A stretch of 64,000 nucleotides of DNA from a virus. Lineage: Duplodnaviria; Heunggongvirae; Uroviricota; Caudoviricetes. The stretch spans positions 1 to 64,000 of IMG/VR virus record IMGVR_UViG_3300035208_005635; one strand, given 5' to 3'. Positions 9,692-61,272 of this stretch are shown here, piece by piece. The notes below the pieces were generated by a model, which searched no databases, had not been told where the DNA came from, and saw only the letters and a list, made by a program, of their open reading frames with translations. Numbering within the stretch: the stretch's first letter is position 1; every line of letters begins with the position of its first letter. The position numbers and the translations under genes were made by a program.

Positions 9692-10012
9692 TTAAATTTT
9701 TTCGTATTCCTCTCTTGAAATCTCTTGTCCATATTTTTTAGCTAATAAATCTTGGGCTTTTATTCCCTCGGTTATTATTTGTTTAGTCTCTACTAAGAAA
9801 TACCTACTTTCTCCGTCATACCCTATCACCTGAATCTTTTTATGGATACCAAACATTAAAATTAACTGATTGACTGTTTCTTGATTTTCAGGCAACTCCC
9901 AATTAGTAAGCAGAGGCTTTTCTGAGATTTCGTGCTGTGTCTCTTTGTCAATAATTTTTTGTTTACTCATATAATTTTTTCTGTGTATCGGCATCTGGGG
10001 AAATTCGAGCAT
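9692..10012 (-). CDS. hypothetical protein
   Basis: 106 aa ORF. Confidence 0.35.
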   Translation of the reverse strand: MLEFPQMPIHRKNYMSKQKIIDKETQHEISEKPLLTNWELPENQETVNQLILMFGIHKKIQVIGYDGESRYFLVETKQIITEGIKAQDLLAKKYGQEISREEYEKI

Positions 10013-10173
10013 CCAAACCAGAAACCGTCATTAAATTTGCTTTTTCTTTTTATCATTTCTGAATGACAGTAAGGACAAGTTTTTTCTTCTATTTTATTCT
10101 CTTCTGATTGGGCTTTTAGTCTTAGCATCAGTTCTCCAAATTTTCTTTCCTCTCCTTGTAAGTCTTCTATCAT
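9967..10173 (-). CDS. small protein with topoisomerase-type C4 zinc finger
   Basis: CPYCHSEMIKRK ... GCSNFPRCRYTE resembles the Topo I-type Zn-ribbon (zf-C4_Topoisom). Confidence 0.45.
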   Translation of the reverse strand: MIEDLQGEERKFGELMLRLKAQSEENKIEEKTCPYCHSEMIKRKSKFNDGFWFGCSNFPRCRYTEKII

Positions 10174-10184
10174 ATAAACATTTT

Positions 10185-10409
10185 CTAAATATTATGGGCT
10201 TTATTTTGTTCTTTTACTTTTTTACTCTTTAGAAACTTATTAAGTGCTGGTTTAAAGCCGCAATTTCCGCATATACGCTCCTCTACAACGCCTTCCTTAC
10301 CTTTCCATATAAAAGGACTAAAAGAGAATTTCCAATTAGTCTGCCCGCATTTAGGGCATTTTTTCGGATAATTAACCTTCTCTAAGAATTTTGTTTCAAA
10401 AGCAGGCAT
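10185..10409 (-). CDS. Zn-ribbon small protein
   Basis: CPKCGQTNW ... CGNCG cysteine pairs. Confidence 0.35.
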   Translation of the reverse strand: MPAFETKFLEKVNYPKKCPKCGQTNWKFSFSPFIWKGKEGVVEERICGNCGFKPALNKFLKSKKVKEQNKAHNI

Positions 10410-10413
10410 AATA

Positions 10414-11280
10414 TTAAGAAGTTATTTTTCTTAAGTGCTCGATAAAAGGAGTTAATCTAGTGCTACTGAATTTCTTGTATTCATCTTCAATATAAGGCAA
10501 AGCCTGAGATAGTATTGTTCTCTTTAAATCTTGCTTAGTAATAATCTCATTATCTACTATACGCTCGATTTCATTCTTTAAGTCTTCTCCGCTTTTCTTT
10601 AGAAGTTCCTCAGCATTTTCAGGATTATTATTTATTAACTCTACTGTATCTTTTAAAACTTCTCTGCTAGGAAAATCATTATTTAAAATCTTTTTCTTTA
10701 AAGCTTCTCTATATTTATTGTCTAGAACTTTATTTGCTTCTATTATATGTGTGTAGGAAATTTCTGAATTTTCTATGGCTTTAGTAATAATAGAAGTTTC
10801 ATCTGATAAGATTATAGACTCGCGGACAAGCCAAGGACTTTCGCCTACTTCGTTGGCTAATTCTTTTATGCCTTTAGAATGATAATCTGATTTGTGCTTT
10901 TCATCTCTTTTTTCTAACAATTCTTCCTTTTTATATTTTAGCATCTCTTTAAAAGCTCTGCCTTTTTCAATAACATTCAAATCTAAATGTTGGGCGTTCT
11001 CTACATATTGTCTTTGTAATTTTTGAAAAGGTGTCAGTCCTTTTGTAATAGTGCAGGGGATAGTTACTAATCCAGCCATCTTTGCCGCTCTCCATCTTCT
11101 TTCTCCGCAAATAATTACATTGTTTTCGTCTATCTCAATGGGATGAATAATTCCTTGTTGGACAATAGTATTTGCCAAGCTCTCTATGCCTTTTTTATCA
11201 AAAATATACCTAGGATTTTTTGGACAAGGTTTTACTTCTTCAATTTTTAGATGCTTTATCATATTTTTATTAGGAAACAA
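10414..11280 (-). CDS. ParB-like nuclease-domain protein
   Basis: IHPIEIDENNVIICGERRWRAAKMAG matches the ParB/Srx N-domain GxRRxxA box. Long helical C-terminal region. Confidence 0.6.
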   Translation of the reverse strand: MFPNKNMIKHLKIEEVKPCPKNPRYIFDKKGIESLANTIVQQGIIHPIEIDENNVIICGERRWRAAKMAGLVTIPCTITKGLTPFQKLQRQYVENAQHLDLNVIEKGRAFKEMLKYKKEELLEKRDEKHKSDYHSKGIKELANEVGESPWLVRESIILSDETSIITKAIENSEISYTHIIEANKVLDNKYREALKKKILNNDFPSREVLKDTVELINNNPENAEELLKKSGEDLKNEIERIVDNEIITKQDLKRTILSQALPYIEDEYKKFSSTRLTPFIEHLRKITS

Positions 11281-16815: not shown

Positions 16816-16818
16816 AGG

Positions 16819-16889
16819 TGCTTGGGGTTAGAATCGAACTAACTTCCGGCGAGTTTCAGTCGCCTGCTTTTCCATTAAGCTACCCAAGC
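16819..16889 (-). tRNA. tRNA-Phe (anticodon GAA)
   Basis: Hand-folded cloverleaf. Acceptor gcttggg/cccaagc. D-arm gctt..aagc. Anticodon stem ggcga/tcgcc with loop ctGAAac. T-arm gttag-ttcgatt-ctaac. Discriminator A. Confidence 0.85.
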
Positions 16890-17236
16890 TCTTTTAGAAA
16901 CGCTCTACCGTTGAGCTATTTCTCACCACCGAAGCTGGAGAATTATCGGAGTCTAACCGATGTCTTTTCTAATACGTCAGAGATAGTGGAATTGAACCAC
17001 TTTTTTACGGTTCCAAACCGTATATAATACCGTTATATCAATCCCTGGTAACGGTGTTCTTCCGTATCACCGCCTAAAAGAATAGATAGAAATTGTAATA
17101 TTAAAAGTATAATTAAAAATTTTTTCATATCCTCCTTGCTTATGTGGGAAGAGTGAGAGTCGCACTCCGCGGGGATTGAAACAATCACTTGGTCTACAGC
17201 CAAGTCTCGCCCTCTACGAGTCTACCTGCCCTTTTT

Positions 17237-29026: not shown

Positions 29027-29113
29027 CCAAATACTGTATTTTATGCAAGTGGGAGTAATCTAATTTTTAGACAATTTAAGTATAGCATATTTTAGGAATT
29101 TAATCAAATATTG

Positions 29114-29184
29114 AGGGAGGCCTAGGAATCGAACCTAGATAGCTTGCACCACAAGCAAGTGCTCTACCATTGAACTAACCACCC
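29114..29184 (-). tRNA. tRNA-His (anticodon GTG)
   Basis: Acceptor gggtggt/gcctccc with one U-U mismatch. D-arm gttc..gagc. Anticodon stem cttgc/gcaag with loop ttGTGgt. T-arm ctagg-ttcgatt-cctag. No encoded G-1. Confidence 0.75.
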
Positions 29185-46060: not shown

Positions 46061-47020
46061 AATAATAAACCAATCAAAAATTTTAGCCTTTTCTGTCGCT
46101 TAACTCTACACAATTAAAAAACTGATTGGCGGCGTAAACTACACAAAAAGCAAAATCAAAAAAACGGAAATCAAAAACAACTAAAAGCTAATAAATATAA
46201 ATACTATTTCGCAGTTTTCTAACACCCGCCCGCATAACAAAAAATTGACAGAAAATAAAATAAGTAGCGATAAAAAGACAAATAAAACGGCAAGCGGGCT
46301 ATTTGAGAAGAGAGAAAAAAGTGGTGAGATTTTTAATTATTGTCAATTAAATATCTAAAAAACAAGATAAGCAAAAAACAAAATGAGAGCTAAAACATAA
46401 TGAGTAAAAAAAGAATATAATATAATAAACATAAACATTTCCGCAATAATAGAATTCTCAGAGAAATTGAAAGCATATAGAGAGATAAAAGTAAAAGAGC
46501 ATAAGAGAATGAGGGGGCGGATATTAGATGTAAAAAAACTGATTGATGTTAAATAAGCAAATAATAGGCAGATAAATGCCGATAAATATTAAACGATTGG
46601 CTAACATTCGCTTACGCATAGCATAGACAGATAGACATATAATAGGCAGGTAGACGAGCATTAGGCTAAGACAGGCTATTCTCGTAGCTTTGATATTAGC
46701 CTATAATACAGCCAAAAAGAACACTGCTAATAATAGCCACTAATAGCTAATATTAAACAATAGCCATTCTATTGCCTTTAACCGACCCACTAGAATGGCG
46801 TAGAATAAATAAATAACAATAAGTCCGCATAAGAGATATCTTTCAGAGATTCCCTCGTTGATAGCTAATATAAGGCATATATACCCCCCTATAAATATCT
46901 AAAGGGTTAATTTATAACAATATCAATGATAGCCTTTCAATTTCTCTAGAATTTTTAATAACCCGATTAGTTTTTTAATTTTAATAAAAAGCATATAATA
47001 TATGGCTAATATCAGATAAA

Positions 47021-47144: not shown

Positions 47145-47465
47145 ATGGCTACTACAAAGATATTATTTTCTATAGAGCAGAAGAAAAAAGACTTATTTAA
47201 ACTAAAGGCTGTTTCGGAGAGAAAGACCATTACCGAGGTGCTAGTTAAATTTGTCGATAGCTATATCGGCAAAGGTTCTCCTGAAAATAATAAACAATTT
47301 GAATTTAGCGAAAAATCTGAGGAATTTCAAAAAGGATTAATTCCTCCTAAAGAAGAAGTTAGTGTTATTTCAGAAAAGGCTGAAAATTCTGCGGAGGTTA
47401 AGACAATCCCTAGAGCTAATCATTCTAATAAAAAGCCTTATCCTACTTTTTTTAAGAAAGTTTAA
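47145..47465 (+). CDS. possible ribbon-helix-helix (CopG/Arc-like) DNA-binding protein
   Basis: The N-terminal KILFSIEQKKKDLFKLKAVSERKTITEVLVKFVDSYI pattern is RHH-like. First gene of the plus-strand block. Confidence 0.35.
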   Translation: MATTKILFSIEQKKKDLFKLKAVSERKTITEVLVKFVDSYIGKGSPENNKQFEFSEKSEEFQKGLIPPKEEVSVISEKAENSAEVKTIPRANHSNKKPYPTFFKKV

Positions 47466-47857
47466 TATTTAAAAATATGCCAACAAAAATAGAAGAAATA
47501 GAAAAATTAAGAGAGGCGGTTATTAAAAAGCATTTTCCTCATTTGAATAATCCGGTTTTCTGTAATTATGTTCCGGTCGGGGGGGTGTCTTGTAATAGCC
47601 TCATACGAAGATTTACAGAGGCAAGAAGCACATATTGATAATAAAGTCTTATATTATGTTAAATTAGGCATCAAAGCCGAGGATTTAGCTAATAAAAAAT
47701 AATTTAATTATTATGAACATCAAAAAAATTATTAGTGAACACAAACGTCTTAAGAAAAGCCAGCCTGTAAAATACGGGTTTAAGCGGGTAGAAGCCATTG
47801 TTGAGGAAAACGGCTTTTTATCGACAAGACATATAGACATTAAAGCAAATTGAGATT

Positions 47858-48278: not shown

Positions 48279-48349
48279 GGTTTAGTAGCCAAGTGGAAAG
48301 GCAGGGGTCTGCAAAACCCCGAACATAGGTTCGATTCCTGTCTAGGCCT
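48279..48349 (+). tRNA. tRNA-Cys (anticodon GCA)
   Basis: Acceptor ggtttag/ctaggcc with two G-U pairs. Anticodon stem ggggt/acccc with loop ctGCAaa. T-arm atagg-ttcgatt-cctgt. Confidence 0.75.
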
Positions 48350-48359
48350 CAAAATATTT

Positions 48360-48791
48360 ATGAACCACAAATTTAAAAAAGCTAGAAAAGTAACGGAAAA
48401 AGAAAAAATATATTGCGGAGGAAAACCAGAAGCAATTATTCCAGAAAAACCCAAAGTTTCTGCAGGGATAAAAAAATATGAATGTAAAAGAGGAAAAGGA
48501 AAGCATATTTTTGAAATTGTTCCTAAAAATCAGAAAAAGCATAAATACGATAGTTGGATAGAATATAAATGTAAGTTTTGCGGTAAAGAAGAATACCGAA
48601 TAATATCAATGGGTTATAAAAAAACTTCTAATGGATATTATACAAAAAAAGAACCTAAAAAATGTCCTATTTGTGGAAAGGAAGTCATACCTGATTTAGA
48701 AAGTTTAGATAAAAAAGGATTGTGGGATGAGCATACTTTTAAATATAACTGTAATTGTCATAATAAAGATTTAAGAGTTTCGATAGGTTAG
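48360..48791 (+). CDS. hypothetical Cys-rich zinc-ribbon protein
   Basis: CKFCGKEEY ... CPICGKE ... CNCHNK. Confidence 0.4.
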   Translation: MNHKFKKARKVTEKEKIYCGGKPEAIIPEKPKVSAGIKKYECKRGKGKHIFEIVPKNQKKHKYDSWIEYKCKFCGKEEYRIISMGYKKTSNGYYTKKEPKKCPICGKEVIPDLESLDKKGLWDEHTFKYNCNCHNKDLRVSIG

Positions 48792-48865
48792 CCAATATAG
48801 CTCAACTGGCTAGAGCAATTCTCTTGTAAAGAAAAGGTTAGAGGTTCGAACCCTCTTATTGGCTC
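48792..48865 (+). tRNA. tRNA-Thr (anticodon TGT)
   Basis: Acceptor gccaata/tattggc. D-arm gctc..gagc. Anticodon loop ctTGTaa. T-arm agagg-ttcgaac-cctct. Confidence 0.8.
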
Positions 48866-48872
48866 TAAAAAG

Positions 48873-48943
48873 TAGGGATAGTTCAGTGGCAGAATACTCG
48901 CCTCCAAAGCGAAAGACAAGAGTTCGATTCTCTAGCCCTATGC
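48873..48943 (+). tRNA. tRNA-Trp (anticodon CCA)
   Basis: Acceptor gtaggga/gccctat. D-arm gttc..gaat. Anticodon stem ctcgc/gcgaa with loop ctCCAaa. T-arm aagag-ttcgatt-ctcta. Confidence 0.7.
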
Positions 48944-48971
48944 AAATTAATTTAATAATGAAATAAAAAAA

Positions 48972-49271
48972 ATGATAATTAATAAAAAGTATTTCACAAA
49001 AAGAGAATTAAAAAATTCTGAAGAGGCAATTATTCTAGCGAGAAAAATAATGGCTGGCGAGTCTGAGAATAGCACCTTAAAATATGACGCCTTAAGAAAG
49101 AAAATAAGAGAAATGGACTTAGATAAAGAGAGCAATCATTATATTTATTTAGTTGGTGAAAGAGTGTCTGATTTAATCATAGCTACGCATTGTCCTATTA
49201 ATGGAAATTTCGCTTTCAGGAAATGCACACAAGAAGAGTGGTTAGATTATTATCATAAATATGTAATGTAA
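48972..49271 (+). CDS. hypothetical protein
   Basis: 99 aa ORF. Confidence 0.4.
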   Translation: MIINKKYFTKRELKNSEEAIILARKIMAGESENSTLKYDALRKKIREMDLDKESNHYIYLVGERVSDLIIATHCPINGNFAFRKCTQEEWLDYYHKYVM

Positions 49272-49272
49272 T

Positions 49273-49344
49273 CGCGGGGTAGAGAAATTGGCATCTCGTC
49301 GGTCTCATAATCCGAAGGAGCGGGTTCGAATCCCGCCTCCGCAA
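49273..49344 (+). tRNA. initiator tRNA-fMet (anticodon CAT)
   Basis: CGCGGGGTAGAG...GTCGGTCTCATAATCCGAAGG...GGGTTCGAATCCCGCCTCCGCAA. C1xA72 mismatch. Near-identical in layout to the bacterial initiator tRNA. Confidence 0.9.
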
Positions 49345-49591
49345 CAAGGTATTTGCTTTTTGCAAATAGCACTTTGTCCGTTTCTTATTTGTTATCGTAA
49401 GAACAAATAAGTTAAGGAAGACAATTAATTCGTGGCAACCGAAGGGGATAATCAGGGCTTAAAAGCCTAGTAGCCCGTTGATTGAGGATTACGAGCCAAA
49501 TATATCAACGTATGACTAATAAATAATCTTTTTATTAGTTGCGAGACCTCTGCTGGAATAGGCTATGCCGCCGAAGTGCTATTCGCTAAAA

Positions 49592-49664
49592 GCGAATGTA
49601 ATATAACGGTTTAGTATGACAGTTTTCCAAACTGTTCGCGTGGGTTCGACTCCCACTATTCGCA
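49592..49664 (+). tRNA. tRNA-Gly (anticodon TCC)
   Basis: Acceptor gcgaatg/tattcgc. Anticodon stem acagt/actgt with loop ttTCCaa. T-arm gtggg-ttcgact-cccac. Confidence 0.8.
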
Positions 49665-49669
49665 CAAGA

Positions 49670-49753
49670 GCTACTGTGGTGGAATTGGCAGACACGCAAC
49701 ACTTAAAATGTTGTGGGGGAAACCCCATAGAGGTTCAACTCCTCTCAGTAGCA
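49670..49753 (+). tRNA. tRNA-Leu (anticodon TAA), type II with long variable arm
   Basis: Acceptor gctactg/cagtagc. Anticodon stem caaca/tgttg with loop ctTAAaa. Variable arm gggggaaacccca. T-arm agagg-ttcaact-cctct. Confidence 0.85.
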
Positions 49754-49758
49754 CAGAA

Positions 49759-49839
49759 GCTCCTGTAGAGAAACTGGTAAACTCGCCTGCCTTAGAAGCA
49801 GGAGCGAAAGCAGTCTGGGTTCGAATCCCAGCAGGAGCA
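49759..49839 (+). tRNA. tRNA-Leu (anticodon TAG), type II
   Basis: Acceptor gctcctg/caggagc. Anticodon stem cctgc/gcagg with loop ctTAGaa. T-arm ctggg-ttcgaat-cccag. Confidence 0.85.
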
Positions 49840-49844
49840 CGTAT

Positions 49845-49915
49845 TGGCTTGTAGCTCAACGGTAGAGCACTGAACTGATACTTCATAGACCTTGGTTCGA
49901 CTCCAAGTAAGCCTA
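49845..49915 (+). tRNA. tRNA-Ile (anticodon GAT)
   Basis: TA-GCTCAACGGTAGAGC D-arm. Anticodon loop ctGATac. T-arm cttgg-ttcgact-ccaag. The exact acceptor boundaries are uncertain (U1-U72 mismatch in my fold). Confidence 0.6.
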
Positions 49916-49971
49916 CTGAGATTAATATATAAAAATAAAGTGACTGACTGTTTCCTCTTGACAAGGAGGAA

Positions 49972-50415: not shown

Positions 50416-50820
50416 TTGTATTATATGTATGAATTGAAACTAAAACATAAATTTTCGGCGGCTCATCATTTAGAAAATTATGATGGTGCTTGTGCTAATG
50501 TTCACGGTCATACTTGGTCTGTTCTTATATCTATAAAGACAAATACTTTGGTTAACGATATGGTTGTTGACTTTAAGGAGCTTAAGGCTTTAATAGATGA
50601 GAGATATGACCATAAAGATATAAATAAACAAGTTGTTTTTAATCCTACTGCTGAGCATATTTCGGGAGATATTTATAGTTTAATAAAAGATTATCTCAGA
50701 CCAAAGAACGGAGAGGAAGAAGTTCCGTATACAATTAAGGTAACTGTTTGGGAGGCAGACAATGCTAGTATTACTTATACCGGTGTTGACGCTATTAGTG
50801 AACGCCGGATTACAAATTAG
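50416..50820 (+). CDS. queD: 6-carboxy-5,6,7,8-tetrahydropterin synthase QueD
   Basis: 134 aa T-fold protein with the CANVHGHTW (Cx3HGH) zinc/catalytic motif typical of QueD/PTPS. Confidence 0.75.
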   Translation: MYYMYELKLKHKFSAAHHLENYDGACANVHGHTWSVLISIKTNTLVNDMVVDFKELKALIDERYDHKDINKQVVFNPTAEHISGDIYSLIKDYLRPKNGEEEVPYTIKVTVWEADNASITYTGVDAISERRITN

Positions 50821-51754: not shown

Positions 51755-52486
51755 ATGCTAAAAGTTCACGAAGTCTTTAAGTCATTCCAGGGGGAGGGCG
51801 TGGACATTGGAATGCCGATGGTTTTTGTTAGGTTTGTTGGTTGTAATCTTGCTTGCAAATGGTGTGATACTTTATACGCTAGTCGTCCTAATTCTGAATA
51901 TAGAGAATATTTTGCTTTGCCTTTAATAGAAGAGATAGAGAAATTTGAAAATACTAGAGGAGTTACTTTAACAGGCGGGGAGCCGATGGTTCAGGATACC
52001 TTAGAACTAGACACGCTAATTTATGAATTAAAGGGAAAAGGACATTTTATAAATATAGAAACTAATGGAATTTTTCTTCCTGTTTTAACTAACGATAAGT
52101 TAGTAGATAGATTTAGTATTTCTCCTAAATTAAGCTCTTCAAAAAATAAAAATAGTCCTAATTTAGATACTTTATCTAAATACTTAAACGATTATCCTCA
52201 TAAGATATTCTTTAAATTTGTTATAAGTAATGAAGAAGAGCTTTTAGAGATGTTTGCTGTTTTGGAAAGCTTAAAACAAAAAGATATTAATATTTTGAAT
52301 ATACCTATAGTAGTTCAGCCTAACATAGACCCAAAAAAGGCAGAAAATTTTGTTGCTCAACAAGATGCTTTTAAAGACATATTAAAAGAAATATTATTTA
52401 AACACGCTTACTTATCTAGACAATATAATATTCGAGTTATTCCTCAATTCCATAAATATCTATGGGCAAACAAAAAAGGAGTTTAA
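51755..52486 (+). CDS. queE: 7-carboxy-7-deazaguanine synthase QueE (radical SAM)
   Basis: N-terminus LKVHEVFKSFQGEG (QueE signature). CNLACKWCDT radical-SAM CxxxCxxC. 243 aa. Confidence 0.8.
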   Translation: MLKVHEVFKSFQGEGVDIGMPMVFVRFVGCNLACKWCDTLYASRPNSEYREYFALPLIEEIEKFENTRGVTLTGGEPMVQDTLELDTLIYELKGKGHFINIETNGIFLPVLTNDKLVDRFSISPKLSSSKNKNSPNLDTLSKYLNDYPHKIFFKFVISNEEELLEMFAVLESLKQKDINILNIPIVVQPNIDPKKAENFVAQQDAFKDILKEILFKHAYLSRQYNIRVIPQFHKYLWANKKGV

Positions 52487-55105: not shown

Positions 55106-56896
55106 ATGATAAATATTACCCAAGAGCAATTAGAAAAAGATTCTTTGGAATTAGCAAAGAAAATTAAAAAATTTGGAACTAAGTTTGGATATGTAATAGG
55201 TATTTCAAGAGGGGGAATTATCCCAGCTCAAATAATTGCTAAAGAATTAGAAATTCCTTTCAAAAGTTCTGAGGAAATTAAATTCTTTGATTTTTCAAAG
55301 ATGCCCATTTCTTACCCTGGTGCTAGATTGCTTATTGTTGACGATTTAATTGATTCAGGGAAAACTCTGAAAGAGTTAGCTTTTAACCTTTCTTCTTTTA
55401 CGGTCAGAACGGCTGTTTTGTATAAGAAGAAAAATAAAAATCAAGCTATTTGTCCTAATTATTTTTTAAAGGAAGTTCCTAATCAATGGGTGTGTCTTCC
55501 TCACGAAGAAGGTTATGGAGTAGAAGACCATATTACTAGAATATTAGAATTTGTTGGAGAAGACCCAACAAGAGAAGGGTTAAAAGATACCCCTAGACGG
55601 GTCGCTAAGATGTATACTGAGATATTTAGAGGATACGACCCTACTCAGAAACCTAAGATAACTACTTTTCTTAACGGAAAGGATGGTATTACTTATAGTC
55701 AGATGATTATAGACGAAGGAACTTTTTATTCGCATTGCTTAACAGGAGATACGCAAATAAAAACTGTCAGAGGTATTTTCAGAATAAAGGATTTAGTAGG
55801 AAGAACAGAAGATGTCTTTTGTTATGATGAGAAGAATAAGAGATTTACAATTGCAAAAGCAAAAGACATAAGAATGACCTCTAAAAAAGCAGAGATTCTT
55901 AAGCTCACCACTGACTATGGGGCAATTTATGCAACAAGCGAGCATAAATTTTTGACCTACAACAGAGGTTGGGTAATGTTAAAAGACCTAAAACCAAAAG
56001 ATAGCTTAGTTGCTTTAAACTCTAGACTCTCAGGAAGTTACCTTACAACACAAGTATCTGATTCAAGAGATGGTTGGAGGAAAGAACATAATTTTATCTA
56101 TGAGGAGATGTCAGGAGAAAAATTAAAAAGTAAGGAGTTAGTTCATCATATTGATGGTGATAAAAGAAATAATATCTATGAGAATTTACAGAAGATGATA
56201 AATAAAGACCACACAGGGCTACACGCCAGAAAATATATGGCCTCCCTTTCTTCTGAACAAAAGTCAGAAATAGGCAAAAAAGCAAATTGGGGTTTTATTA
56301 GTTTAAGAGAAAAAGAGCCAGAGAAGTATAAATTAGTTAAAGAAAAAGCTAGAAATTCTTTAAAAAAGATGTATTCTAGCGAGAGGGGAATAGCTTTAAA
56401 GGAAAAGAAAAGTCGCGATACAAAAATTTGGTGGAAAAACAGAAAAGAAAAGAAGATGAAAAATCACCGAGTTGTAAAAGTTGAGTTTTCAGGATTTGAG
56501 CCTGTTTATAATATGGAAGTAGAGAAGTATCATAATTTTGTGGCTAATAGCCTCGTAGTCCATAATTGTGAGCATCATATGGTTCCATTCTTCGGAAAAT
56601 ACTATTTTGCGTATATACCAAATAAGACAATTATTGGTTTAAGTAAAGTTGCTCGAATAGTTGATTATTATTCTGCTAGATTGCAGGTTCAAGAAAGACT
56701 TGTCAGACAAATTGTAGATGAGATTGAGAAGTCCTGTAAGCCTCGTGGTATAGCATTGGTTATGAAGGCGGAGCATTTATGCAAAACAATGCGAGGTGTT
56801 AAAAAACAAGGTGTTATGACTGCTAGCGAGCTAAGAGGCTCTTTTGTTAAAGATTCTAAAGTTAGACAAGAATTTTTATCACTAATAAAAATATGA
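55106..56896 (+). CDS. folE: phosphoribosyltransferase-domain / GTP cyclohydrolase I (FolE) fusion, interrupted by an HNH intein
   Basis: Residues 1-135 form a type-I PRTase (VIGISRGGIIPA ... LLIVDDLIDSGKTL). Residues 140-210 plus the C-terminal 109 aa form FolE (EDPTREGLKDTPRRVAKMY ... FYSHC / CEHHMVPFFGKYYFAYIPN...). The intein sits exactly between YSH and CEHH. Confidence 0.75.
   Translation: MINITQEQLEKDSLELAKKIKKFGTKFGYVIGISRGGIIPAQIIAKELEIPFKSSEEIKFFDFSKMPISYPGARLLIVDDLIDSGKTLKELAFNLSSFTVRTAVLYKKKNKNQAICPNYFLKEVPNQWVCLPHEEGYGVEDHITRILEFVGEDPTREGLKDTPRRVAKMYTEIFRGYDPTQKPKITTFLNGKDGITYSQMIIDEGTFYSHCLTGDTQIKTVRGIFRIKDLVGRTEDVFCYDEKNKRFTIAKAKDIRMTSKKAEILKLTTDYGAIYATSEHKFLTYNRGWVMLKDLKPKDSLVALNSRLSGSYLTTQVSDSRDGWRKEHNFIYEEMSGEKLKSKELVHHIDGDKRNNIYENLQKMINKDHTGLHARKYMASLSSEQKSEIGKKANWGFISLREKEPEKYKLVKEKARNSLKKMYSSERGIALKEKKSRDTKIWWKNRKEKKMKNHRVVKVEFSGFEPVYNMEVEKYHNFVANSLVVHNCEHHMVPFFGKYYFAYIPNKTIIGLSKVARIVDYYSARLQVQERLVRQIVDEIEKSCKPRGIALVMKAEHLCKTMRGVKKQGVMTASELRGSFVKDSKVRQEFLSLIKI
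55736..56566 (+). mobile_element. intein (277 aa) with HNH homing endonuclease in FolE
   Basis: Begins CLTGDTQIKT. HNH region ELVHHIDGDKRNNIYENLQKMINKDHTGLH. Ends VVHN with a +1 Cys that is the catalytic CEHH cysteine. Confidence 0.75.
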
Positions 56897-57225
56897 CATC
56901 AATAATTGTAAAATCTAATTTTGTTGGTTTTCATTGTTGGCTTCGAGCACCAGATGAAGTTTCTTTTCTCAGAGAATATCACAGACATATTTTTTATGTA
57001 GAGTTAAAGATAGAGGTAAAGTCTTCAGATAGAGAATTAGAGTTTTTTACTGTTCAGAATAAATTAAAGGAAAGGATTGACACTGATTACAGAAATCAGT
57101 ATTTTCACAAGAGCTGTGAAATGATTGCTGAAGAATTGCGAAATAACTTTTTAGGTCTTTACCCGTCAAGAAATATCTCAGTTTTAGTTTCAGAGGATGG
57201 TGAGAACAGTGCCTTATGTGAATAA
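56893..57225 (+). CDS. hypothetical 110-aa protein in the deazaguanine island
   Basis: The size fits T-fold enzymes. No confident motif. Confidence 0.3.
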   Translation: MTSIIVKSNFVGFHCWLRAPDEVSFLREYHRHIFYVELKIEVKSSDRELEFFTVQNKLKERIDTDYRNQYFHKSCEMIAEELRNNFLGLYPSRNISVLVSEDGENSALCE

Positions 57226-57237
57226 TTTATATATTAT

Positions 57238-58590
57238 TTGTTCTTTACAAAGGAGAAGAGTATGAAAAAAGTAATACTTGATTTTGCTACAACAGAGGTG
57301 GTAAGAGGTAGTTTTGGATACGATTCTTACCTACTTTATTCCGCCTTAAAATCAAGAGGAGAAGAAGTTTCCCTAATAGAAGATGTTAGCCCTATGCAAA
57401 TTCACAAAGGTATAGGGGAAGAAAGTGACGAATGGATTATCCATTACTGGAGCTATCCGCAAAAGACCTTTATCGATTGGGCAATGAAAAAGCTTCGCGG
57501 TAAAAAAAGTTTCATCGGTTATAAGCCTTTAATTCGTAGGGATAATCTTCCCTTGTTAAAAGAATACGATAATAAGGCTATTTACGAAGGAATGAAGTAT
57601 TTGCCGGAAATACTGAAGGAGTTTAAGTATGGTCTTATGTCAGATTGCGACGAGCATATAAAGGGAAGTAAAATGGAAAAGGTAATGCCGTTGTTTCTCA
57701 GTTATGGATGCCCGAATGTTTGTGCCTTTTGTCCTATACCAGCAAATAGGAGAGATTCGACTCCGAGGAGAGTAGAACTAGATTTTGACGATTGTTCCAG
57801 AACTCTCCTATCTATGCGGGAAAAAGGTTACAATAGTATTCATTTTTGCGACGAGGATTTCTTTATGAATACAGATAGAGCAGAAACGATTATTTCCTTT
57901 CTGTCTAGTCTAGGCGGATTCAAATACATTGCCTTGGCTTCTGTTAGCTCTTTCTATAAAATTGTTGAAAGAGTAGGTATTCAAAAAATTCTCGATTCTG
58001 GATTACAGGTAGTAGAGCTTGGTTTAGAAACCAAAGACCTCGCTCTTCGCAAAAAAATGAAAAAAACAGGTTCAGAAGAACAGTTGCAGTATCTTTTAAA
58101 CATAAAGGAGTTAAAGGATAAAATATTTTTTCTTTCTGTAAGTCTGTTTCCAGGAGAAACTCTGGAAAGTGTTGAAAAGACCGGTGCTTTCTTAAAGCAA
58201 TACGGTCCTACAATAACTTCTCTTACTAGCAGAGTAAAGGCTAATTCTTCTGTCGGAGGTTTAGGTCAATTCTTTCAGCATTATACTGGATGTATTGACG
58301 AGGAAACATTAGCAAAGCAGGGAAAATTTTATGAAAAAATCTTTCCGACAAGATTAGAGCCGAGCTTTGCCCCATATAGCCTTTTGAAGCAAAAACCAAA
58401 ATGGAAGTATAATCAAGAAATTGCTTTGAATGAATTATTTTGGTGGAGGGATGTTTATAATCTCGACCCAATGAAACTCTTCTATACCAGGATAGACGGT
58501 TCTAAAACTGTCGACGAGATAGTGGGAAATAATACAGATATTTTGAAGCATATTTTACTTCTTGCTCGTCTCGGAAAGTTGGAAAGTTAA
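57238..58590 (+). CDS. radical SAM enzyme with N-terminal B12-binding-like domain (class B type)
   Basis: LFLSYGCPNVCAFCPI is CxxxCxxC. N-terminal Rossmann-like region (KKVILDFATTEVVRGSFGYDSYLLYSALK...). The start may be the Met at 57262. Confidence 0.6.
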   Translation: MFFTKEKSMKKVILDFATTEVVRGSFGYDSYLLYSALKSRGEEVSLIEDVSPMQIHKGIGEESDEWIIHYWSYPQKTFIDWAMKKLRGKKSFIGYKPLIRRDNLPLLKEYDNKAIYEGMKYLPEILKEFKYGLMSDCDEHIKGSKMEKVMPLFLSYGCPNVCAFCPIPANRRDSTPRRVELDFDDCSRTLLSMREKGYNSIHFCDEDFFMNTDRAETIISFLSSLGGFKYIALASVSSFYKIVERVGIQKILDSGLQVVELGLETKDLALRKKMKKTGSEEQLQYLLNIKELKDKIFFLSVSLFPGETLESVEKTGAFLKQYGPTITSLTSRVKANSSVGGLGQFFQHYTGCIDEETLAKQGKFYEKIFPTRLEPSFAPYSLLKQKPKWKYNQEIALNELFWWRDVYNLDPMKLFYTRIDGSKTVDEIVGNNTDILKHILLLARLGKLES

Positions 58591-58646: not shown

Positions 58647-59666
58647 ATGAGAATAATTAATATACCAATTGAACCTTTAGATAAACGCTATACAGAACAA
58701 TGGTATCGTTGGTTTCCTGAGGCTTTTGAAAAAAACAACATAAAATTCATTACTATAGACGGAGAAAAATTAACAGATAAAATAGAACACGGAAATGTTT
58801 TAGATGTCTATGGGACTCACTACTATAAGTTTTCTCAGTTACAGACTCTAATGAAAATGCTTAGAGAGGGAAAAATCAAAGACACAGATGTTCTATTATT
58901 TCACGATTTGTGGTTTCCTGGAATTGAGGCTTTGCAATATATCCGAGATATGGAAGGTAAGAAGTTTCAGATTTGCGGAATATTACACGCGGGAACTTGG
59001 GATAAAAATGATTTCACTTTTAGAAACGGAATGCGTCCTTGGGCAATGATGATAGAAAGAGGATGGTTAAGATTCTTTGATAAAGTGCTCTTAGGCTCTG
59101 AATATCACAAAGAGTTAATTGCTAGAGATTTTCCCGAGGCTGAAGATAGGTTATTTGTTACTGGACTGCCTTTTGATTATCGAGAAGTAGATTTTTGTAA
59201 AAAAGGCGGGAGAGAGAAGGAAAAAATAGTTGTTTTTAATCACCGCCTCGACCCAGAGAAGCAACCCGAGTTATTTGACAAATTAGAGAGAGAGCTAAAG
59301 GCACAGTTCCCTGATTGGAAGTTCATTAAAACAATAGAATGCACTAAGAATAAAAAAGAGTATTATTCTTTATTAGCGAGAAGTAGTGTCTGTGTCAGCC
59401 TCGCTCTTCAGGAAACATTTGGATATTCTACTCTTGAATCGTTAGCAAATCATTGCTTCACAGTTGTCCCGAAAAGATTAAGTTACGAAACAATGCCAAT
59501 ATACAAAGGTTGTTACTACGAGAATTACTCTGAAATGAAAGATTTAGTAAGAAAGTTTATGAAGGAATCACAGGATTGGATGCCTTATTACGAAAATCAA
59601 TTAAAAGAGTTTTTACCTGATAATATAGTTAAAAACATTAAAAATATTTTAGAAAAGAAAAACTAG
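58647..59666 (+). CDS. GT-B glycosyltransferase (GT1/GT4-like)
   Basis: C-terminal region KIVVFNHRLDPEKQPELF ... ETFGYSTLESL resembles the GT4 nucleotide-sugar binding motif. Confidence 0.5.
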   Translation: MRIINIPIEPLDKRYTEQWYRWFPEAFEKNNIKFITIDGEKLTDKIEHGNVLDVYGTHYYKFSQLQTLMKMLREGKIKDTDVLLFHDLWFPGIEALQYIRDMEGKKFQICGILHAGTWDKNDFTFRNGMRPWAMMIERGWLRFFDKVLLGSEYHKELIARDFPEAEDRLFVTGLPFDYREVDFCKKGGREKEKIVVFNHRLDPEKQPELFDKLERELKAQFPDWKFIKTIECTKNKKEYYSLLARSSVCVSLALQETFGYSTLESLANHCFTVVPKRLSYETMPIYKGCYYENYSEMKDLVRKFMKESQDWMPYYENQLKEFLPDNIVKNIKNILEKKN

Positions 59667-59689: not shown

Positions 59690-60583
59690 TTGCCTTACAG
59701 GTATTTTATGAATATATATTTAGCCGCAATGGAGCAGAAAGATAGTTTTGCTATTATTAAATCAGGAATTGTTCATAACGCTTTTCTTAGTTATTATTAT
59801 ATCTTTAGAAAAAAAAATTCTTATGATAGTAATCGAGAGATGTTTAGAAATAACATAAAAAGAATTATTATCGATTGCGGAGCTCATTCTTTCTTTGCAA
59901 ATATGAATAGTAATCTTTCCGCTTCGGTTAAAAAAAATAAGTATAAAGAAAAACAGTCCTTAGAAGAATATTTTAATCATTATATTAAATGGGTAGAAAA
60001 AAATTACGATTACTTTGACTATTTCATAGAGTTGGATGTTGGAGAAATTGTAGGGCAAGAAAAAGTTTTAGAGTGGCGTAATATTATTAAGGCTAAGGGT
60101 TTATATAAAAAATGTATTACAGTAATGCACCCTAGAGTTATGTCTTGGGAGGATTACTTAAAATTATTAGATGATTCAGAAAGTAAGTATATTGCTATAG
60201 AAAGCGATAGAAAATATAGAAAAAGACTTCCTTATAATAAATATTTAAAAGTCGCTTACGAAAAAGGAATAAGAGTTCACGGGTTTGCAATGACTAAAAC
60301 AGATGCTCTTGGAGTATATCCTTTTACCTCAGTTGATAGTTCTTCTTGGAAGGCAGGAGCACAATACGGGACAGGTAAAGCTCTTACTAAAAAGGGATTT
60401 GTAAATGTAAAATTTAAGGATAAAAAGAAATGTATGTCTTTGCCTAATACAATAGGGATTCATAGTGCCAATAAAGAAGAAAATAGAACAAGTCGTTATA
60501 TATTGGCAATTAAAGCTTATCAAAAAATGGCTTCTCATTTTACAGATTTGTGGAAAAAAAGAGGCATAACTTGGAAAGACTAA
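59690..60583 (+). CDS. candidate DpdA-like 7-deazaguanine DNA transglycosylase (TGT-like); speculative
   Basis: About 297 aa. RIIIDCGAHSFF is loosely DSGGFQ-like. Context: que genes upstream and a ParB-like (DpdB-like) gene immediately downstream. Confidence 0.3.
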   Translation: MPYRYFMNIYLAAMEQKDSFAIIKSGIVHNAFLSYYYIFRKKNSYDSNREMFRNNIKRIIIDCGAHSFFANMNSNLSASVKKNKYKEKQSLEEYFNHYIKWVEKNYDYFDYFIELDVGEIVGQEKVLEWRNIIKAKGLYKKCITVMHPRVMSWEDYLKLLDDSESKYIAIESDRKYRKRLPYNKYLKVAYEKGIRVHGFAMTKTDALGVYPFTSVDSSSWKAGAQYGTGKALTKKGFVNVKFKDKKKCMSLPNTIGIHSANKEENRTSRYILAIKAYQKMASHFTDLWKKRGITWKD

Positions 60584-61272
60584 TTAATAAAATATTTATG
60601 GAAAACAAAGTTAATACAAAAATAATTAAAATTTCTGAATTAAAACCTAATCCTTGGAATCCTAAGTTAAAGCCGGAAGACGACTTAGATGTTCAACAGC
60701 AATTTGATGAGGTTGTAAGGTCTGTAAAAAATTATGGTTTAGTCGAGCCTATAATGGTTAGAAGTGGAAACGAAAAAGGTGTTTTTGGTTATTATCAGAT
60801 TATTAATGGCTATCATAGATTTATGGCTTGTTCTCAATTAGGTTTTAAAGAAGTTGTTATTAATGATTTAGGAATTGTTAGTGATATTACTGCCAAAAAA
60901 TTAACTATTGTCACGGAAGAAGTAAAAATTCCTATAGACCAAGTTAAGTTAGGGCAATTAATTAAAGAAATGGCGACTACCGAAGATTTGGATAAATTAG
61001 CCGAAGGGTTGCCCTATAGTAAAGATTTACTAGAAAGTAAATTGCAACTATTAGATTTTGATTGGGAAGATATGGAACACGGTAAAGATAAACCAGACTC
61101 TACACCTAGCGATTCTCTTGATGCAGAAAATGACCATACTTTGATTCTTAGATTTTCTAGTGAAACAGATAAACTATTAGTAGAGGCTATGTTTGAAACA
61201 ATAACAAACGAACAAAAAGCCAAGAGTATTTCAGAGGGATTAGTTAATTTTGCAAAGACTTATGGAAAATAA
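60550..61272 (+). CDS. ParB-like nuclease-domain protein (DpdB-like)
   Basis: KISELKPNPWNPKL and GYHRFMAC fit ParB N-domain boxes. Acidic C-terminus. Confidence 0.55.
   Translation: MEKKRHNLERLINKIFMENKVNTKIIKISELKPNPWNPKLKPEDDLDVQQQFDEVVRSVKNYGLVEPIMVRSGNEKGVFGYYQIINGYHRFMACSQLGFKEVVINDLGIVSDITAKKLTIVTEEVKIPIDQVKLGQLIKEMATTEDLDKLAEGLPYSKDLLESKLQLLDFDWEDMEHGKDKPDSTPSDSLDAENDHTLILRFSSETDKLLVEAMFETITNEQKAKSISEGLVNFAKTYGK

Follow-up and report, generated by a model that had tools for sequence, protein, structure and literature searches.

A phage gene was identified that encodes, in a single reading frame, an XGPRT-like phosphoribosyltransferase (PRT) domain, GTP cyclohydrolase I (FolE), and a mobile class-1 HNH intein. 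The gene was found in a 64,000-nucleotide stretch of DNA (hereafter the window), where it sits in a DpdL-type cluster for 7-deazaguanine modification of DNA. Modification of DNA with 7-deazaguanines is a well-studied way for phages to counter restriction, and the published pathway schemes include no phosphoribosyltransferase. As found here, phage 7-deazaguanine clusters frequently carry a minimised XGPRT-like PRT as a conserved accessory. The fusion has apparently gone unnoticed until now, as databases call such proteins just "GTP cyclohydrolase I" and the PRT domain has been invisible behind that label.

Architecture of the PRT-FolE gene

The gene spans positions 55106..56896 of the + strand (as do all features below) in one unbroken ORF, with a precursor of 596 aa and a predicted ligated product of 319 aa. 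Its stop codon shares the letters ATGA (56893..56896) with the start codon of the next gene. Four Pfam families matched the 596-aa ORF, all above their gathering cut-offs: Pribosyltran (aa 9-113, E 3.6e-12, 46.3 bits where 26.3 are required), GTP_cyclohydroI, whose match is split into two stretches (E 5.4e-58), Intein_splicing (PF14890; aa 226-487, E 4.4e-20), and HNH_3 (aa 328-363, E 1.7e-6, 28.0 bits where 24.8 are required).

The N-terminal part is an XGPRT-like minimal type I PRT domain (aa 1-138; 55106..55519). It includes the PPi loop GISRGG (aa 32-37; 55199..55216), the PRPP loop LLIVDDLIDSGKTL (aa 75-88; 55328..55369), and the residues Lys108 (within 55418..55432) and Trp128 (within 55481..55510). 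It is followed by the FolE N-extein (aa 139-210; 55520..55735), which ends in FYSH and was delimited from Pfam, the curated family match, and an alignment to the structure 1wm9. The class-1 intein of 277 aa (aa 211-487; 55736..56566) was delimited from PF14890 and an alignment of FolE inteins. Within it were found block A with Cys1 (CLTGDTQI; 55736..55759), block B with the T-x-x-H motif (TSEHKFLT; 55934..55957), blocks F/G (VYNMEVEKYHNFVANSLVVHN; 56504..56566), and an HNH homing-endonuclease core (HHIDGDKRNNIYENLQKMINKDHTGLH; 56144..56224) matched by HNH_3 and several PHROG HNH families. The FolE C-extein (aa 488-596; 56567..56893) starts with CEHH (56567..56578), which holds the zinc ligands Cys and His and the catalytic His, and continues through QVQERL (56684..56701) to AEHLCKTMRG (56768..56797), which holds the second zinc-ligand Cys. 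The latter motif is free of inteins in the window, while a second intein occupies it in a relative, L009.

This anatomy, namely a PRT fingerprint, a fusion to FolE, and an HNH intein whose +1 residue is the Cys of CEHH, had been proposed in a sequence-only reading, which proved right in every detail. The two loop motifs it quoted were found at aa 32-37 and aa 75-88, and the intein lies between FYSH and CEHH as it had stated: the N-extein ends in FYSH, the intein runs CLTGDTQ...VVHN, and CEHH contributes its Cys as the +1 residue.

All splicing residues are present in the precursor (C211, T277-x-x-H280, H486-N487, and C488), and splicing would give a PRT-FolE enzyme of 319 aa. The FolE domain was evaluated on this 319-aa protein, with the intein removed in silico. 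The spliced protein scored above the FolE equivalog cut-off (TIGR00063, 205.2 bits against 181.6), its matches to GTP cyclohydrolase I structures in the PDB reached an E-value of 8e-43, and the alignment to FolE structures that the earlier reading had suggested was gap-free over the junction to the Thermus GTP cyclohydrolase I 1wm9 ("...FYSMCEHHLLPFFGK"). The intein-free fusions likewise have a contiguous FYS(H/x)CEHH. Residues C211, E212, H213, H214, H280, and C282 of the spliced numbering were invariant in an alignment of 59 sequences; the zinc ligands among them are presumed by analogy with C110, H113, and C181 of E. coli FolE. Because the intein splits the zinc-binding and catalytic CEHH motif, FolE would be expected to be active only after splicing, and the unspliced precursor should lack FolE activity.

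Distribution of the fusion

Among 103 database matches to the N-terminal region, 80 showed the same order of PRT followed by FolE with the same junction, in proteins of 270-300 aa whose start codons align with the ATG at 55106. The same junction was counted in 37 distinct loci, and the fusions amounted to about 80 metagenomic protein clusters from several data sources, so that the architecture recurs in many uncultured phages. One relative, L009, has the same architecture and shares 64% identity with the window in the PRT domain.

Homologues of the PRT domain were also found as standalone proteins of 112-170 aa, with 3169 representatives at E <= 1e-10. In isolated phages these adjoin FolE or QueE, and such an adjacency was seen in many clusters besides the fused ones. 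In Flavobacterium phage immuto_2-6A and Brevundimonas phage StAshley, for example, PRT and FolE are neighbouring genes, and in the latter QueC, QueD, and QueE lie about 7 kb from the PRT/FolE pair. A PRT of the window's family is encoded by both immuto_2-6A and Cellulophaga phage phiST, two phages reported to be fully substituted (PMC10516641). The 10.8-kb cluster of the window had no match among 50,697 GenBank phages by megablast and thus no close isolate there, and the best match of its PolA was only about 33% identical.

The phosphoribosyltransferase domain

The best curated family match of the PRT domain was xanthine PRT, at 60.4 bits against the NCBIfam XPRT equivalog cut-off of 138. The domain fell below the equivalog cut-offs of all curated PRTase families, though above the Pfam gathering score; it is a member of the PRT superfamily and not a curated XPRT equivalog. 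An AF2 model of the spliced protein was confident (pLDDT 93.6, pTM 0.83) and displayed the alpha/beta core of the PRT fold. By the model, the nearest structural kin of the domain were the 6-oxopurine PRTases, and the nearest solved structure was 4z1o.

The comparison with three such enzymes, E. coli Gpt (XGPRT, 1a95/1nul), S. solfataricus HGXPRT (4z1o), and P. horikoshii 1vdm, revealed a shared R-G-G PPi loop, a shared DDxxD(S/T)GxT PRPP loop, a Lys at the O6 position, a stacking Trp, and a C-terminal W-x-x-x-P-x-E motif. The PRT domain differs from them in its low identity (about 25-31%), its shortened hood and flexible loop, its fusion to FolE, and its scores below the equivalog cut-offs. 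Among the 80 fusions, the equivalents of E. coli XGPRT R37, G38, G39, D88, D89, D92, T93 (as Ser), G94, T96, K115, W134, and D140 (as Glu) were near-invariant. In the PRPP loop, D79, D80, D83, G85, and T87 were invariant in the alignment of 59 sequences; in the PPi loop, G37 was invariant and R35 was found in 64 of the 80 fusions. The earlier reading had proposed an alignment against HGPRT/XGPRT and named a lack of PRPP-binding residues as a refutation; on alignment they were present. The residues D83, K108, and W128, invariant or nearly so in the 80 fusions, align with D92, K115, and W134 of E. coli XGPRT, and we take their roles from XGPRT and HGPRT structures to be the contact with N7, the position at O6, and the aromatic stack, respectively. 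Among PRTases, only those for 6-oxopurines have an Asp of the D92 type, the residue that touches N7, and position 7 is a carbon in 7-deazaguanines.

The spacing between the PPi and PRPP loops was 41 residues in the window, with a median of 26 in the fusions, in comparison with 48-52 in characterised enzymes. The shortened flexible-loop and hood region was modeled with low to medium confidence (pLDDT about 68-87). Since the hairpin and the flexible loop between the two loops are shortened, the catalytic competence of the domain is not assured. The PRT domain also diverges faster than its partner: between the window and L009, identity was 64% in the PRT and about 90% in FolE.

No alignment column was found to separate the PRTs of QueC-type clusters from those of DpdL-type clusters, and the pocket residues were identical in both types. 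Pockets specific for preQ0, preQ1, or DG were excluded on this ground. A pocket that stays the same across cluster types favours a substrate shared by every cluster; CDG is one such shared compound, so that the argument accommodates a CDG-directed activity as well.

The gene neighbourhood

The cluster comprises QueD, QueE, PRT-FolE, DpdL, a radical SAM protein of 450 aa, a GT-B glycosyltransferase, DpdA, and a ParB-like protein, with a family-A DNA polymerase encoded between QueE and the PRT-FolE gene. QueD (6-carboxytetrahydropterin synthase; 50416..50820) was identified by Pfam PTPS (5.7e-26) and scored 80.5 bits against TIGR03367, just below the cut-off of 89.25. QueE (the radical SAM CDG synthase; 51755..52486) matched Pfam Radical_SAM and Fer4_12, and the QueE models of NCBIfam were its best matches there, below their cut-offs. 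The ORF that overlaps the end of PRT-FolE (56893..57225) was assigned to DpdL, the proposed CDG decarboxylase: it matched the DpdL genes of phiST and ACP17 by tblastn, and its LREYHRHIF fits LxxxHRHxF, the DpdL signature as defined in PMC10516641. A DpdA-like DNA guanine transglycosylase (59690..60583; phrog_887 queuine tRNA-ribosyltransferase, 4.7e-28) is encoded 2.8 kb downstream of PRT-FolE in the same gene string, with tblastn matches to DpdA/TGT genes of Fusobacterium, Bacillus BCD7, and Streptomyces phages. It is paired with a ParB-like protein (60550..61272; Pfam ParB_N), and this pair recurs in many loci. QueC was not found in the window by a purpose-built HMM, while the window is perhaps not the whole genome; neither a nucleotide kinase, a reductase, nor a dGTPase was found near the cluster in the window.

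The HMMs of FolE, PRT, and QueF were applied at the level of domains, since fused ORFs and the homology of T-fold proteins contaminate whole-ORF HMMs. DpdA was present in 19 of the 20 fused loci with at least 4 kb on both sides. The fusion was also found in QueC-type clusters, including one with both QueC and QueF (L001).

The content of the window's cluster predicts a pathway from GTP to CDG and on to 7-deazaguanine or a derivative, a product that DpdA would swap into DNA for guanine. It corresponds to the known Dpd systems (PMC6884629, PMC10516641), especially to the DpdL type of phiST, where FolE, QueD, QueE, DpdL, and DpdA occur without QueC and, as here, the genes are grouped with replication genes. 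The differences are an N-terminal PRT and an intein in FolE, neither of which is mentioned in PMC6884629 or PMC10516641, a DpdA that resembles the phrog_887 type and not the DpdA3 of phiST, and the additional 450-aa radical SAM protein and GT-B glycosyltransferase.

Possible roles of the PRT domain

The most likely role of the PRT domain, with about an even chance of being the correct one, is the salvage of guanine: the conversion of guanine and PRPP to GMP would feed the GTP supply of FolE and clear the guanine released by DpdA. Hypoxanthine or xanthine may be accepted as well. The co-occurrence of DpdA places a base-exchange route, with free deazaguanine in and guanine out, beside the fusion. 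Guanine from this exchange and from the breakdown of host DNA could thus be recycled towards GTP, the FolE substrate, with the two steps from GMP to GTP supplied by the GMP and NDP kinases of the host. The PRT would at the same time remove free guanine, a competitor of the deazaguanine base at DpdA. The linkage of the PRT to FolE, the consumer of GTP, is consistent with such a role, which is further favoured by the structural kinship with 6-oxopurine PRTases, the Asp of the D92 type, the pocket shared by both cluster types, and the presence of a PRT in both phages reported to be fully substituted. As GMP is not a substrate of FolE, the fusion would provide co-expression and a fixed stoichiometry instead of substrate channelling. 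Against the need for salvage, hosts normally carry their own Gpt or Hpt. The shortened loop region, the score far below the XPRT equivalog cut-off, and the faster divergence of the PRT than of FolE also speak against this role.

Part of this had been anticipated. The sequence-only reading coupled a salvage step to deazapurine synthesis, which is in line with the fusion to FolE in about 80 clusters and with the standalone genes that adjoin FolE or QueE in isolated phages. As an example, it further envisaged incorporation by a polymerase instead of transglycosylation; this part is not supported for the present locus, given the DpdA gene 2.8 kb downstream and in nearly all well-flanked fused loci. 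The fusion thus accompanies the base-exchange enzyme and does not stand in for it. If guanine salvage is true, it closes a cycle from guanine through GTP and deazaguanine to DNA, and would suggest how phages afford and drive base exchange at high levels.

It is possible, if unlikely, that the PRT instead uses PRPP to place ribose-5-phosphate on CDG or a different 7-deazaguanine base. DpdL might then decarboxylate the nucleotide, which would be phosphorylated, reduced, and incorporated by the phage DNA polymerase, while DpdA would act in addition or in reserve. The model for this is TubE of Streptomyces tubercidicus, shown to be a CDG-specific PRTase of tubercidin biosynthesis that is followed by a decarboxylase (PMC6112128). 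TubE and ToyH, of the tubercidin and toyocamycin pathways, are encoded with FolE, QueD, and QueE as in the window, and the TubE cluster specifically matches its gene content in having a decarboxylase and no QueC (PMC6112128). The nearest solved structure is 4z1o for TubE/ToyH and the window PRT alike, and the likeness is otherwise one of gene content. The TubE/ToyH clusters, however, have no transglycosylase, include a GMP reductase, a UbiD decarboxylase, and Nudix/HAD tailoring enzymes, and make secreted nucleoside antibiotics. DpdA is present in the window, and no GMP reductase, UbiD or PurA/B, or Nudix/HAD tailoring families were found in the neighbouring ORFs scanned.

Several observations in phages also point towards a nucleotide-level route. 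The family-A DNA polymerase lies between QueE and PRT-FolE, and in the phiST cluster FolE is separated from DpdA3 by genes for a MazG-like pyrophosphatase and a P-loop protein. In addition, dDG was not reconstituted from DpdL and DpdA in E. coli, and other enzymes were suggested to be needed (Hutinet et al., PMC10516641). The complete genome of Synechococcus phage BUCT-ZZ01 encodes FolE, QueD, QueE, PRT, and DpdL but no DpdA detectable by HMM, an absence that weighs little as the same HMM misses the DpdA3 of phiST; it also had no match in StAshley. These observations are opposed by the DpdA gene in the window's own gene string and by its counterparts in 19 of the 20 well-flanked fused loci, since DpdA needs the free base that such a PRT would consume. 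The fusion moreover occurs in QueC-type clusters such as L001, with QueC and QueF, where diverting CDG would be counter-productive, and the PRT has FolE as its partner instead of QueE, QueC, or DpdL. The invariant N7-contacting Asp would be expected to repel the carboxylate of CDG, the kinase, reductase, and dGTPase that might accompany this route are missing near the window cluster, and PMC10516641 concludes that every known 7-deazaguanine modification of phage DNA is made after replication.

In its fullest form, a phage counterpart of TubE with DpdL acting on the nucleotide, this route would yield a 7-deaza-(d)GTP pool written into DNA at replication, with DpdA topping up or repairing; we regard this form as distinctly unlikely. 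If true, it would explain the failed reconstitution from DpdL and DpdA and overturn the current understanding of 7-deazaguanine modifications in phages as post-replicative without exception. An action of the PRT on a deazaguanine base would in any case reveal a nucleotide-level route to modified DNA.

The minimised PRT fold could also be non-catalytic, binding GMP, GTP, PRPP, or (p)ppGpp and regulating or stabilising FolE in the manner of PyrR, PurR, and other PRT-like regulators. In type I PRTases a flexible-loop hairpin covers the active site, and most fusions lack the greater part of it; nor does the domain reach the equivalog cut-off of any curated PRTase family. Yet the catalytic and PRPP/Mg-binding residues are under strong purifying selection in the 80 fusions, with a conserved set that includes both acidic residues, the Asp92 equivalent, the S/T-G-x-T phosphate loop, R-G-G, Lys, and Trp. 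The standalone homologues are also very numerous (the 3169 above) and occur in nucleotide-metabolism modules, for example beside RNR in phiST. An enzyme fits these observations better, and a sensing role is improbable.

The notion that two genes were joined by a frameshift in sequencing or assembly, which the earlier reading had named as a possible refutation, or that the insertion is a decayed intein-like element, is rejected as having next to no probability, as the ORF is single and uninterrupted, the identical junction recurs in independent protein clusters and distinct loci, every canonical splicing residue is intact with the exteins restored exactly, and the same intein occurs in two further PRT-FolE proteins, L009 (of the same architecture) and P0121.

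A FolE-specific intein family

Judged from its motifs, the intein is of class 1 with a predicted HNH homing endonuclease, and it belongs to a small FolE-specific family. The databases included eight other FolE proteins with an intein at the CEHH site, in addition to the PRT-FolE fusions L009 and P0121. Cys1, the block B Thr and His, the VHN, and the +1 Cys were invariant in the window intein and seven other same-site FolE inteins, and the HNH positions H-H..N..N-L..H..H were conserved in eight FolE inteins. Between the window and L009, identity was 91% in the intein and 89-92% in the FolE exteins; this agreement gives no sign of a recent, independent invasion by the intein.

Inteins of phage RNR, terminase, helicase, and PhoH (e.g., PMC3322345) are similarly of class 1 with a nested homing endonuclease, and they too interrupt a conserved catalytic motif and have Cys as the +1 residue. 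The FolE intein differs from these in its host protein, in a +1 Cys that is a zinc ligand, and in the second site of a relative. No published FolE intein was found in the literature, and with these inteins FolE joins the catalogue of intein host proteins as a new entry, with two insertion sites that are likewise new and that each fall on a zinc-ligand cysteine. The second of these sites was observed in L009, at the other zinc-ligand Cys, and two inteins with a zinc ligand as the +1 Cys could tie the maturation of FolE to the zinc or redox state.

Architecture of the PRT-FolE gene

The gene at 55106..56896 on the plus strand consists of one open frame encoding 596 amino acids, in which four Pfam domains each exceeded the gathering threshold: Pribosyltran (residues 9-113, E 3.6e-12), GTP_cyclohydroI split into two segments (E 5.4e-58), Intein_splicing (residues 226-487, E 4.4e-20), and HNH_3 (residues 328-363). 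The intein spans residues 211-487 (55736..56566), starting with CLTGDTQ and ending with VVHN, while the N-extein ends in FYSH and the +1 residue is the cysteine of CEHH. In-silico removal of the intein yielded a 319-amino-acid protein that exceeded the curated equivalog threshold for GTP cyclohydrolase I (FolE; TIGR00063, 205.2 versus 181.6 bits) and aligned to the Thermus enzyme 1wm9 with no gap across the splice junction. The Pfam search, the in-silico splicing, and 1wm9 bear out in every detail the anatomy proposed by the sequence-only reading, namely a phosphoribosyltransferase (PRT) fingerprint, a fusion to FolE, and an HNH intein with the CEHH cysteine at +1, and the motifs quoted there were all located in the open frame.

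Recurrence of the fusion and the PRT family

When 5.8 billion proteins were searched with the N-terminal 170 amino acids, 80 of the 103 matches were proteins of 270-300 amino acids with an identical PRT-then-FolE order and junction, annotated at source only as 'GTP cyclohydrolase I'. The possibility of an artefact, in which a frameshift joins two genes, is contradicted by the single open frame and by this recurring junction, and the fusion is real and recurrent. Three fused proteins were traced to contigs, all of them phage, where they adjoined QueD and QueE plus either QueC or DpdL; further loci were obtained from IMG/VR (60) and from a one-genome-per-species scan (nine). The best-scoring fused representative, P0114 (316 amino acids), carries TCAHH instead of CEHH, with extra sequence inserted between the two domains, and may be a FolE variant with a changed catalytic motif.

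Searching with a profile of the PRT domain gave, at E <= 1e-10, 3169 representatives of clusters at 50% identity; the majority are standalone proteins of 112-170 amino acids. In isolated phages, standalone PRTs neighbour deazaguanine genes. The PRT directly precedes FolE in Flavobacterium phage immuto_2-6A and directly follows it in Brevundimonas phage StAshley, where QueC, QueD, and QueE are about 7 kb away. In Synechococcus phage BUCT-ZZ01 it lies between QueE and QueD/FolE. This complete cyanophage genome (ON615601.1, fetched loci L078-L081) encodes FolE, QueD, QueE, the PRT, DpdL, and two GT-B proteins at 65689..72623, and the order QueE-PRT-FolE...DpdL-GT-QueD is common to many IMG/VR loci. 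A structure search added CGPG_00045 of Cellulophaga phage phiST (NC_020842.1, 28218..28646), a PRT of the same family with all motifs kept, about 1.3 kb from the ribonucleotide reductase gene in the same region. Elsewhere in phiST, a MazG-like NTP pyrophosphatase and a P-loop (kinase-like) protein are encoded between FolE, DpdL, and DpdA3 (47175..47762 and 46381..46860), and these nucleotide-level enzymes thus occur in a phage reported to have G fully replaced.

The PRT is an unrecognised, widespread accessory domain of a known phage DNA-modification pathway. No published description of a FolE intein or of a PRT in phage Dpd clusters was found, within an incomplete coverage of the literature.

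Gene neighbourhood

Eight tRNAs are followed by QueD (50416..50820), QueE (51755..52486), a family-A DNA polymerase, two small ORFs, and PRT-FolE. Downstream are a 110-amino-acid ORF that overlaps the PRT-FolE stop codon (56893..57225), a 450-amino-acid radical SAM protein (57238..58590), a GT-B glycosyltransferase of GT4/GT-B-like type (58647..59666), a DpdA-like transglycosylase (59690..60583), a ParB-N-domain gene overlapping the latter (60550..61272), and the terminase. The window contains eleven tRNA genes (48279..49916, 16817..17047, and 29113..29184), eight of which cluster just upstream of QueD. No close cultured relative of the phage was found.

The 110-amino-acid ORF contains LREYHRHIF, which fits the LxxxHRHxF signature of DpdL, the proposed CDG decarboxylase (Hutinet et al. 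2023, PMC10516641), and it matched the phiST and ACP17 DpdL genes by tblastn. Given this ORF, and with no QueC detected in the window, the cluster is of the DpdL type, as in phiST, and its predicted product is 7-deazaguanine or a derivative. The radical SAM protein, weakly similar to B12-dependent PhpK-type methyltransferases, could further modify the deazaguanine; its only homologue was in L009, a relative locus (IMGVR_UViG_3300037067_013626), with no match among GenBank phages.

DpdL nearly always occurred with a homologue of the GT-B glycosyltransferase. The pair was found in 15 fetched loci, and also in the isolated phages ACP17, the PA5oct group, Xanthomonas X1/BUDD, Burkholderia BCSR5, Sinorhizobium Phosso, and Synechococcus BUCT-ZZ01, but not in phiST. 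The glycosyltransferase is possibly a DpdL partner not yet described, and may be relevant to why dDG reportedly could not be reconstituted from DpdL and DpdA. The pairing of DpdA with a ParB-like gene also recurred in many fetched loci.

Predicted function of the PRT domain

The domain was aligned to E. coli XGPRT, the sequence of which was confirmed against 1a95. Equivalents of R37, G38, G39, D88, D89, D92, T93, G94, T96, K115, W134, and D140 were invariant or nearly so among the 80 fusions, and the PRPP-binding residues are retained in the window protein. A shortened hairpin and flexible loop separate the PPi and PRPP loops, the spacing being 41 residues in the window and a median of 26 among fusions, versus 48-52 in characterised enzymes. 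The domain is a pared-down 6-oxopurine-PRT-like fold in which the catalytic constellation is intact and the lid is reduced. The invariant Asp is equivalent to the residue through which HGPRT and XGPRT contact purine N7, one that is not known from adenine, orotate, and uracil PRTases.

Guanine salvage, the conversion of guanine to GMP, is the function that we favor, at about an even chance. It is suggested by the linkage of the PRT to FolE and not to the enzymes making the deaza base, by the pocket residues, which are the same in QueC-type and DpdL-type clusters, by the correspondence of the invariant Asp to the N7-contacting residue, and by the co-occurrence of DpdA, which is encoded in the window as well as by 19 of the 20 fused loci flanked on each side by at least 4 kb. 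Among well-flanked fused loci, QueC (13 loci) and DpdL (six loci) were mutually exclusive partners. DpdA swaps DNA guanine for the free deazaguanine base and releases guanine, with one GTP spent at FolE per deazaguanine. A guanine PRTase would send the freed guanine back to the GTP pool, host kinases being needed from GMP to GTP, and would also clear a competitor of the DpdA reaction. The sequence-only reading, which suggested that a phosphoribosyl step is coupled to deazapurine synthesis, for example in place of transglycosylation, finds partial support; the link is real, the domain function itself being predicted, while the replacement is contradicted by the gene context, in which DpdA is present.

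A TubE-like activity on CDG is a less likely alternative. In tubercidin biosynthesis, TubE phosphoribosylates CDG, not 7-deazaguanine, ahead of a decarboxylase and in a cluster without QueC, and the structural homologue used was a S. solfataricus PRTase listed as 4Z10_A, evidently 4z1o (Liu et al. 2018, PMC6112128). This is a real parallel with the window cluster, and such an activity would fit the failure of DpdL and DpdA to reconstitute dDG (Hutinet et al. 2023, PMC10516641), the nucleotide-type genes inside the phiST deazaguanine cluster, and BUCT-ZZ01, where no DpdA was found by HMM, by phmmer with phiST and immuto DpdA queries, or by Pfam on neighbouring ORFs, with search sensitivity unproven. 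However, DpdA is otherwise constantly present, the fusion also occurs in QueC/QueF clusters, the Asp is conserved, and no kinase, reductase, or dGTPase genes lie near the cluster. A non-catalytic ligand sensor, as the truncated lid and a structural neighbour bound to ppGpp might suggest, is improbable given the strict conservation of every catalytic residue and the abundance of standalone homologues.

Inteins in FolE

FolE adds a new protein to the hosts of inteins. The window intein retains every canonical class-1 residue, and because it splits the zinc-binding and catalytic CEHH motif, the precursor should lack FolE activity before splicing, as is typical of inteins. Eight other FolE proteins, without the PRT domain, bear a homologous HNH intein at the identical site. 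Seven of them were aligned with the window intein, to which their identities run from 66% down to 29%; C1, Thr and His of block B, VHN, the Cys at +1, and the residues of the HNH motif were invariant throughout.

Two other PRT-FolE fusions carry the HNH intein at the same site, the database protein P0121 (571 amino acids) and L009. The latter, a close relative of the window phage, matches it in the downstream gene set (DpdL, GT, radical SAM, DpdA, and ParB), with identities of 64% for the PRT, 89-92% for FolE, and 91% for the intein. Its gene (925 amino acids) also contains a second intein of 329 amino acids and LAGLIDADG type (9701..10687 of that record), which follows AEHL, runs from Cys to SGN, and precedes CKTMRG, so that the second zinc-ligand Cys of FolE occupies its +1 position. 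The window has no insertion at the corresponding point (about 56777..56782, Leu-Cys of AEHLCKTMRG). The insertion points of the two L009 inteins therefore make both zinc-ligand cysteines +1 nucleophiles in one protein.
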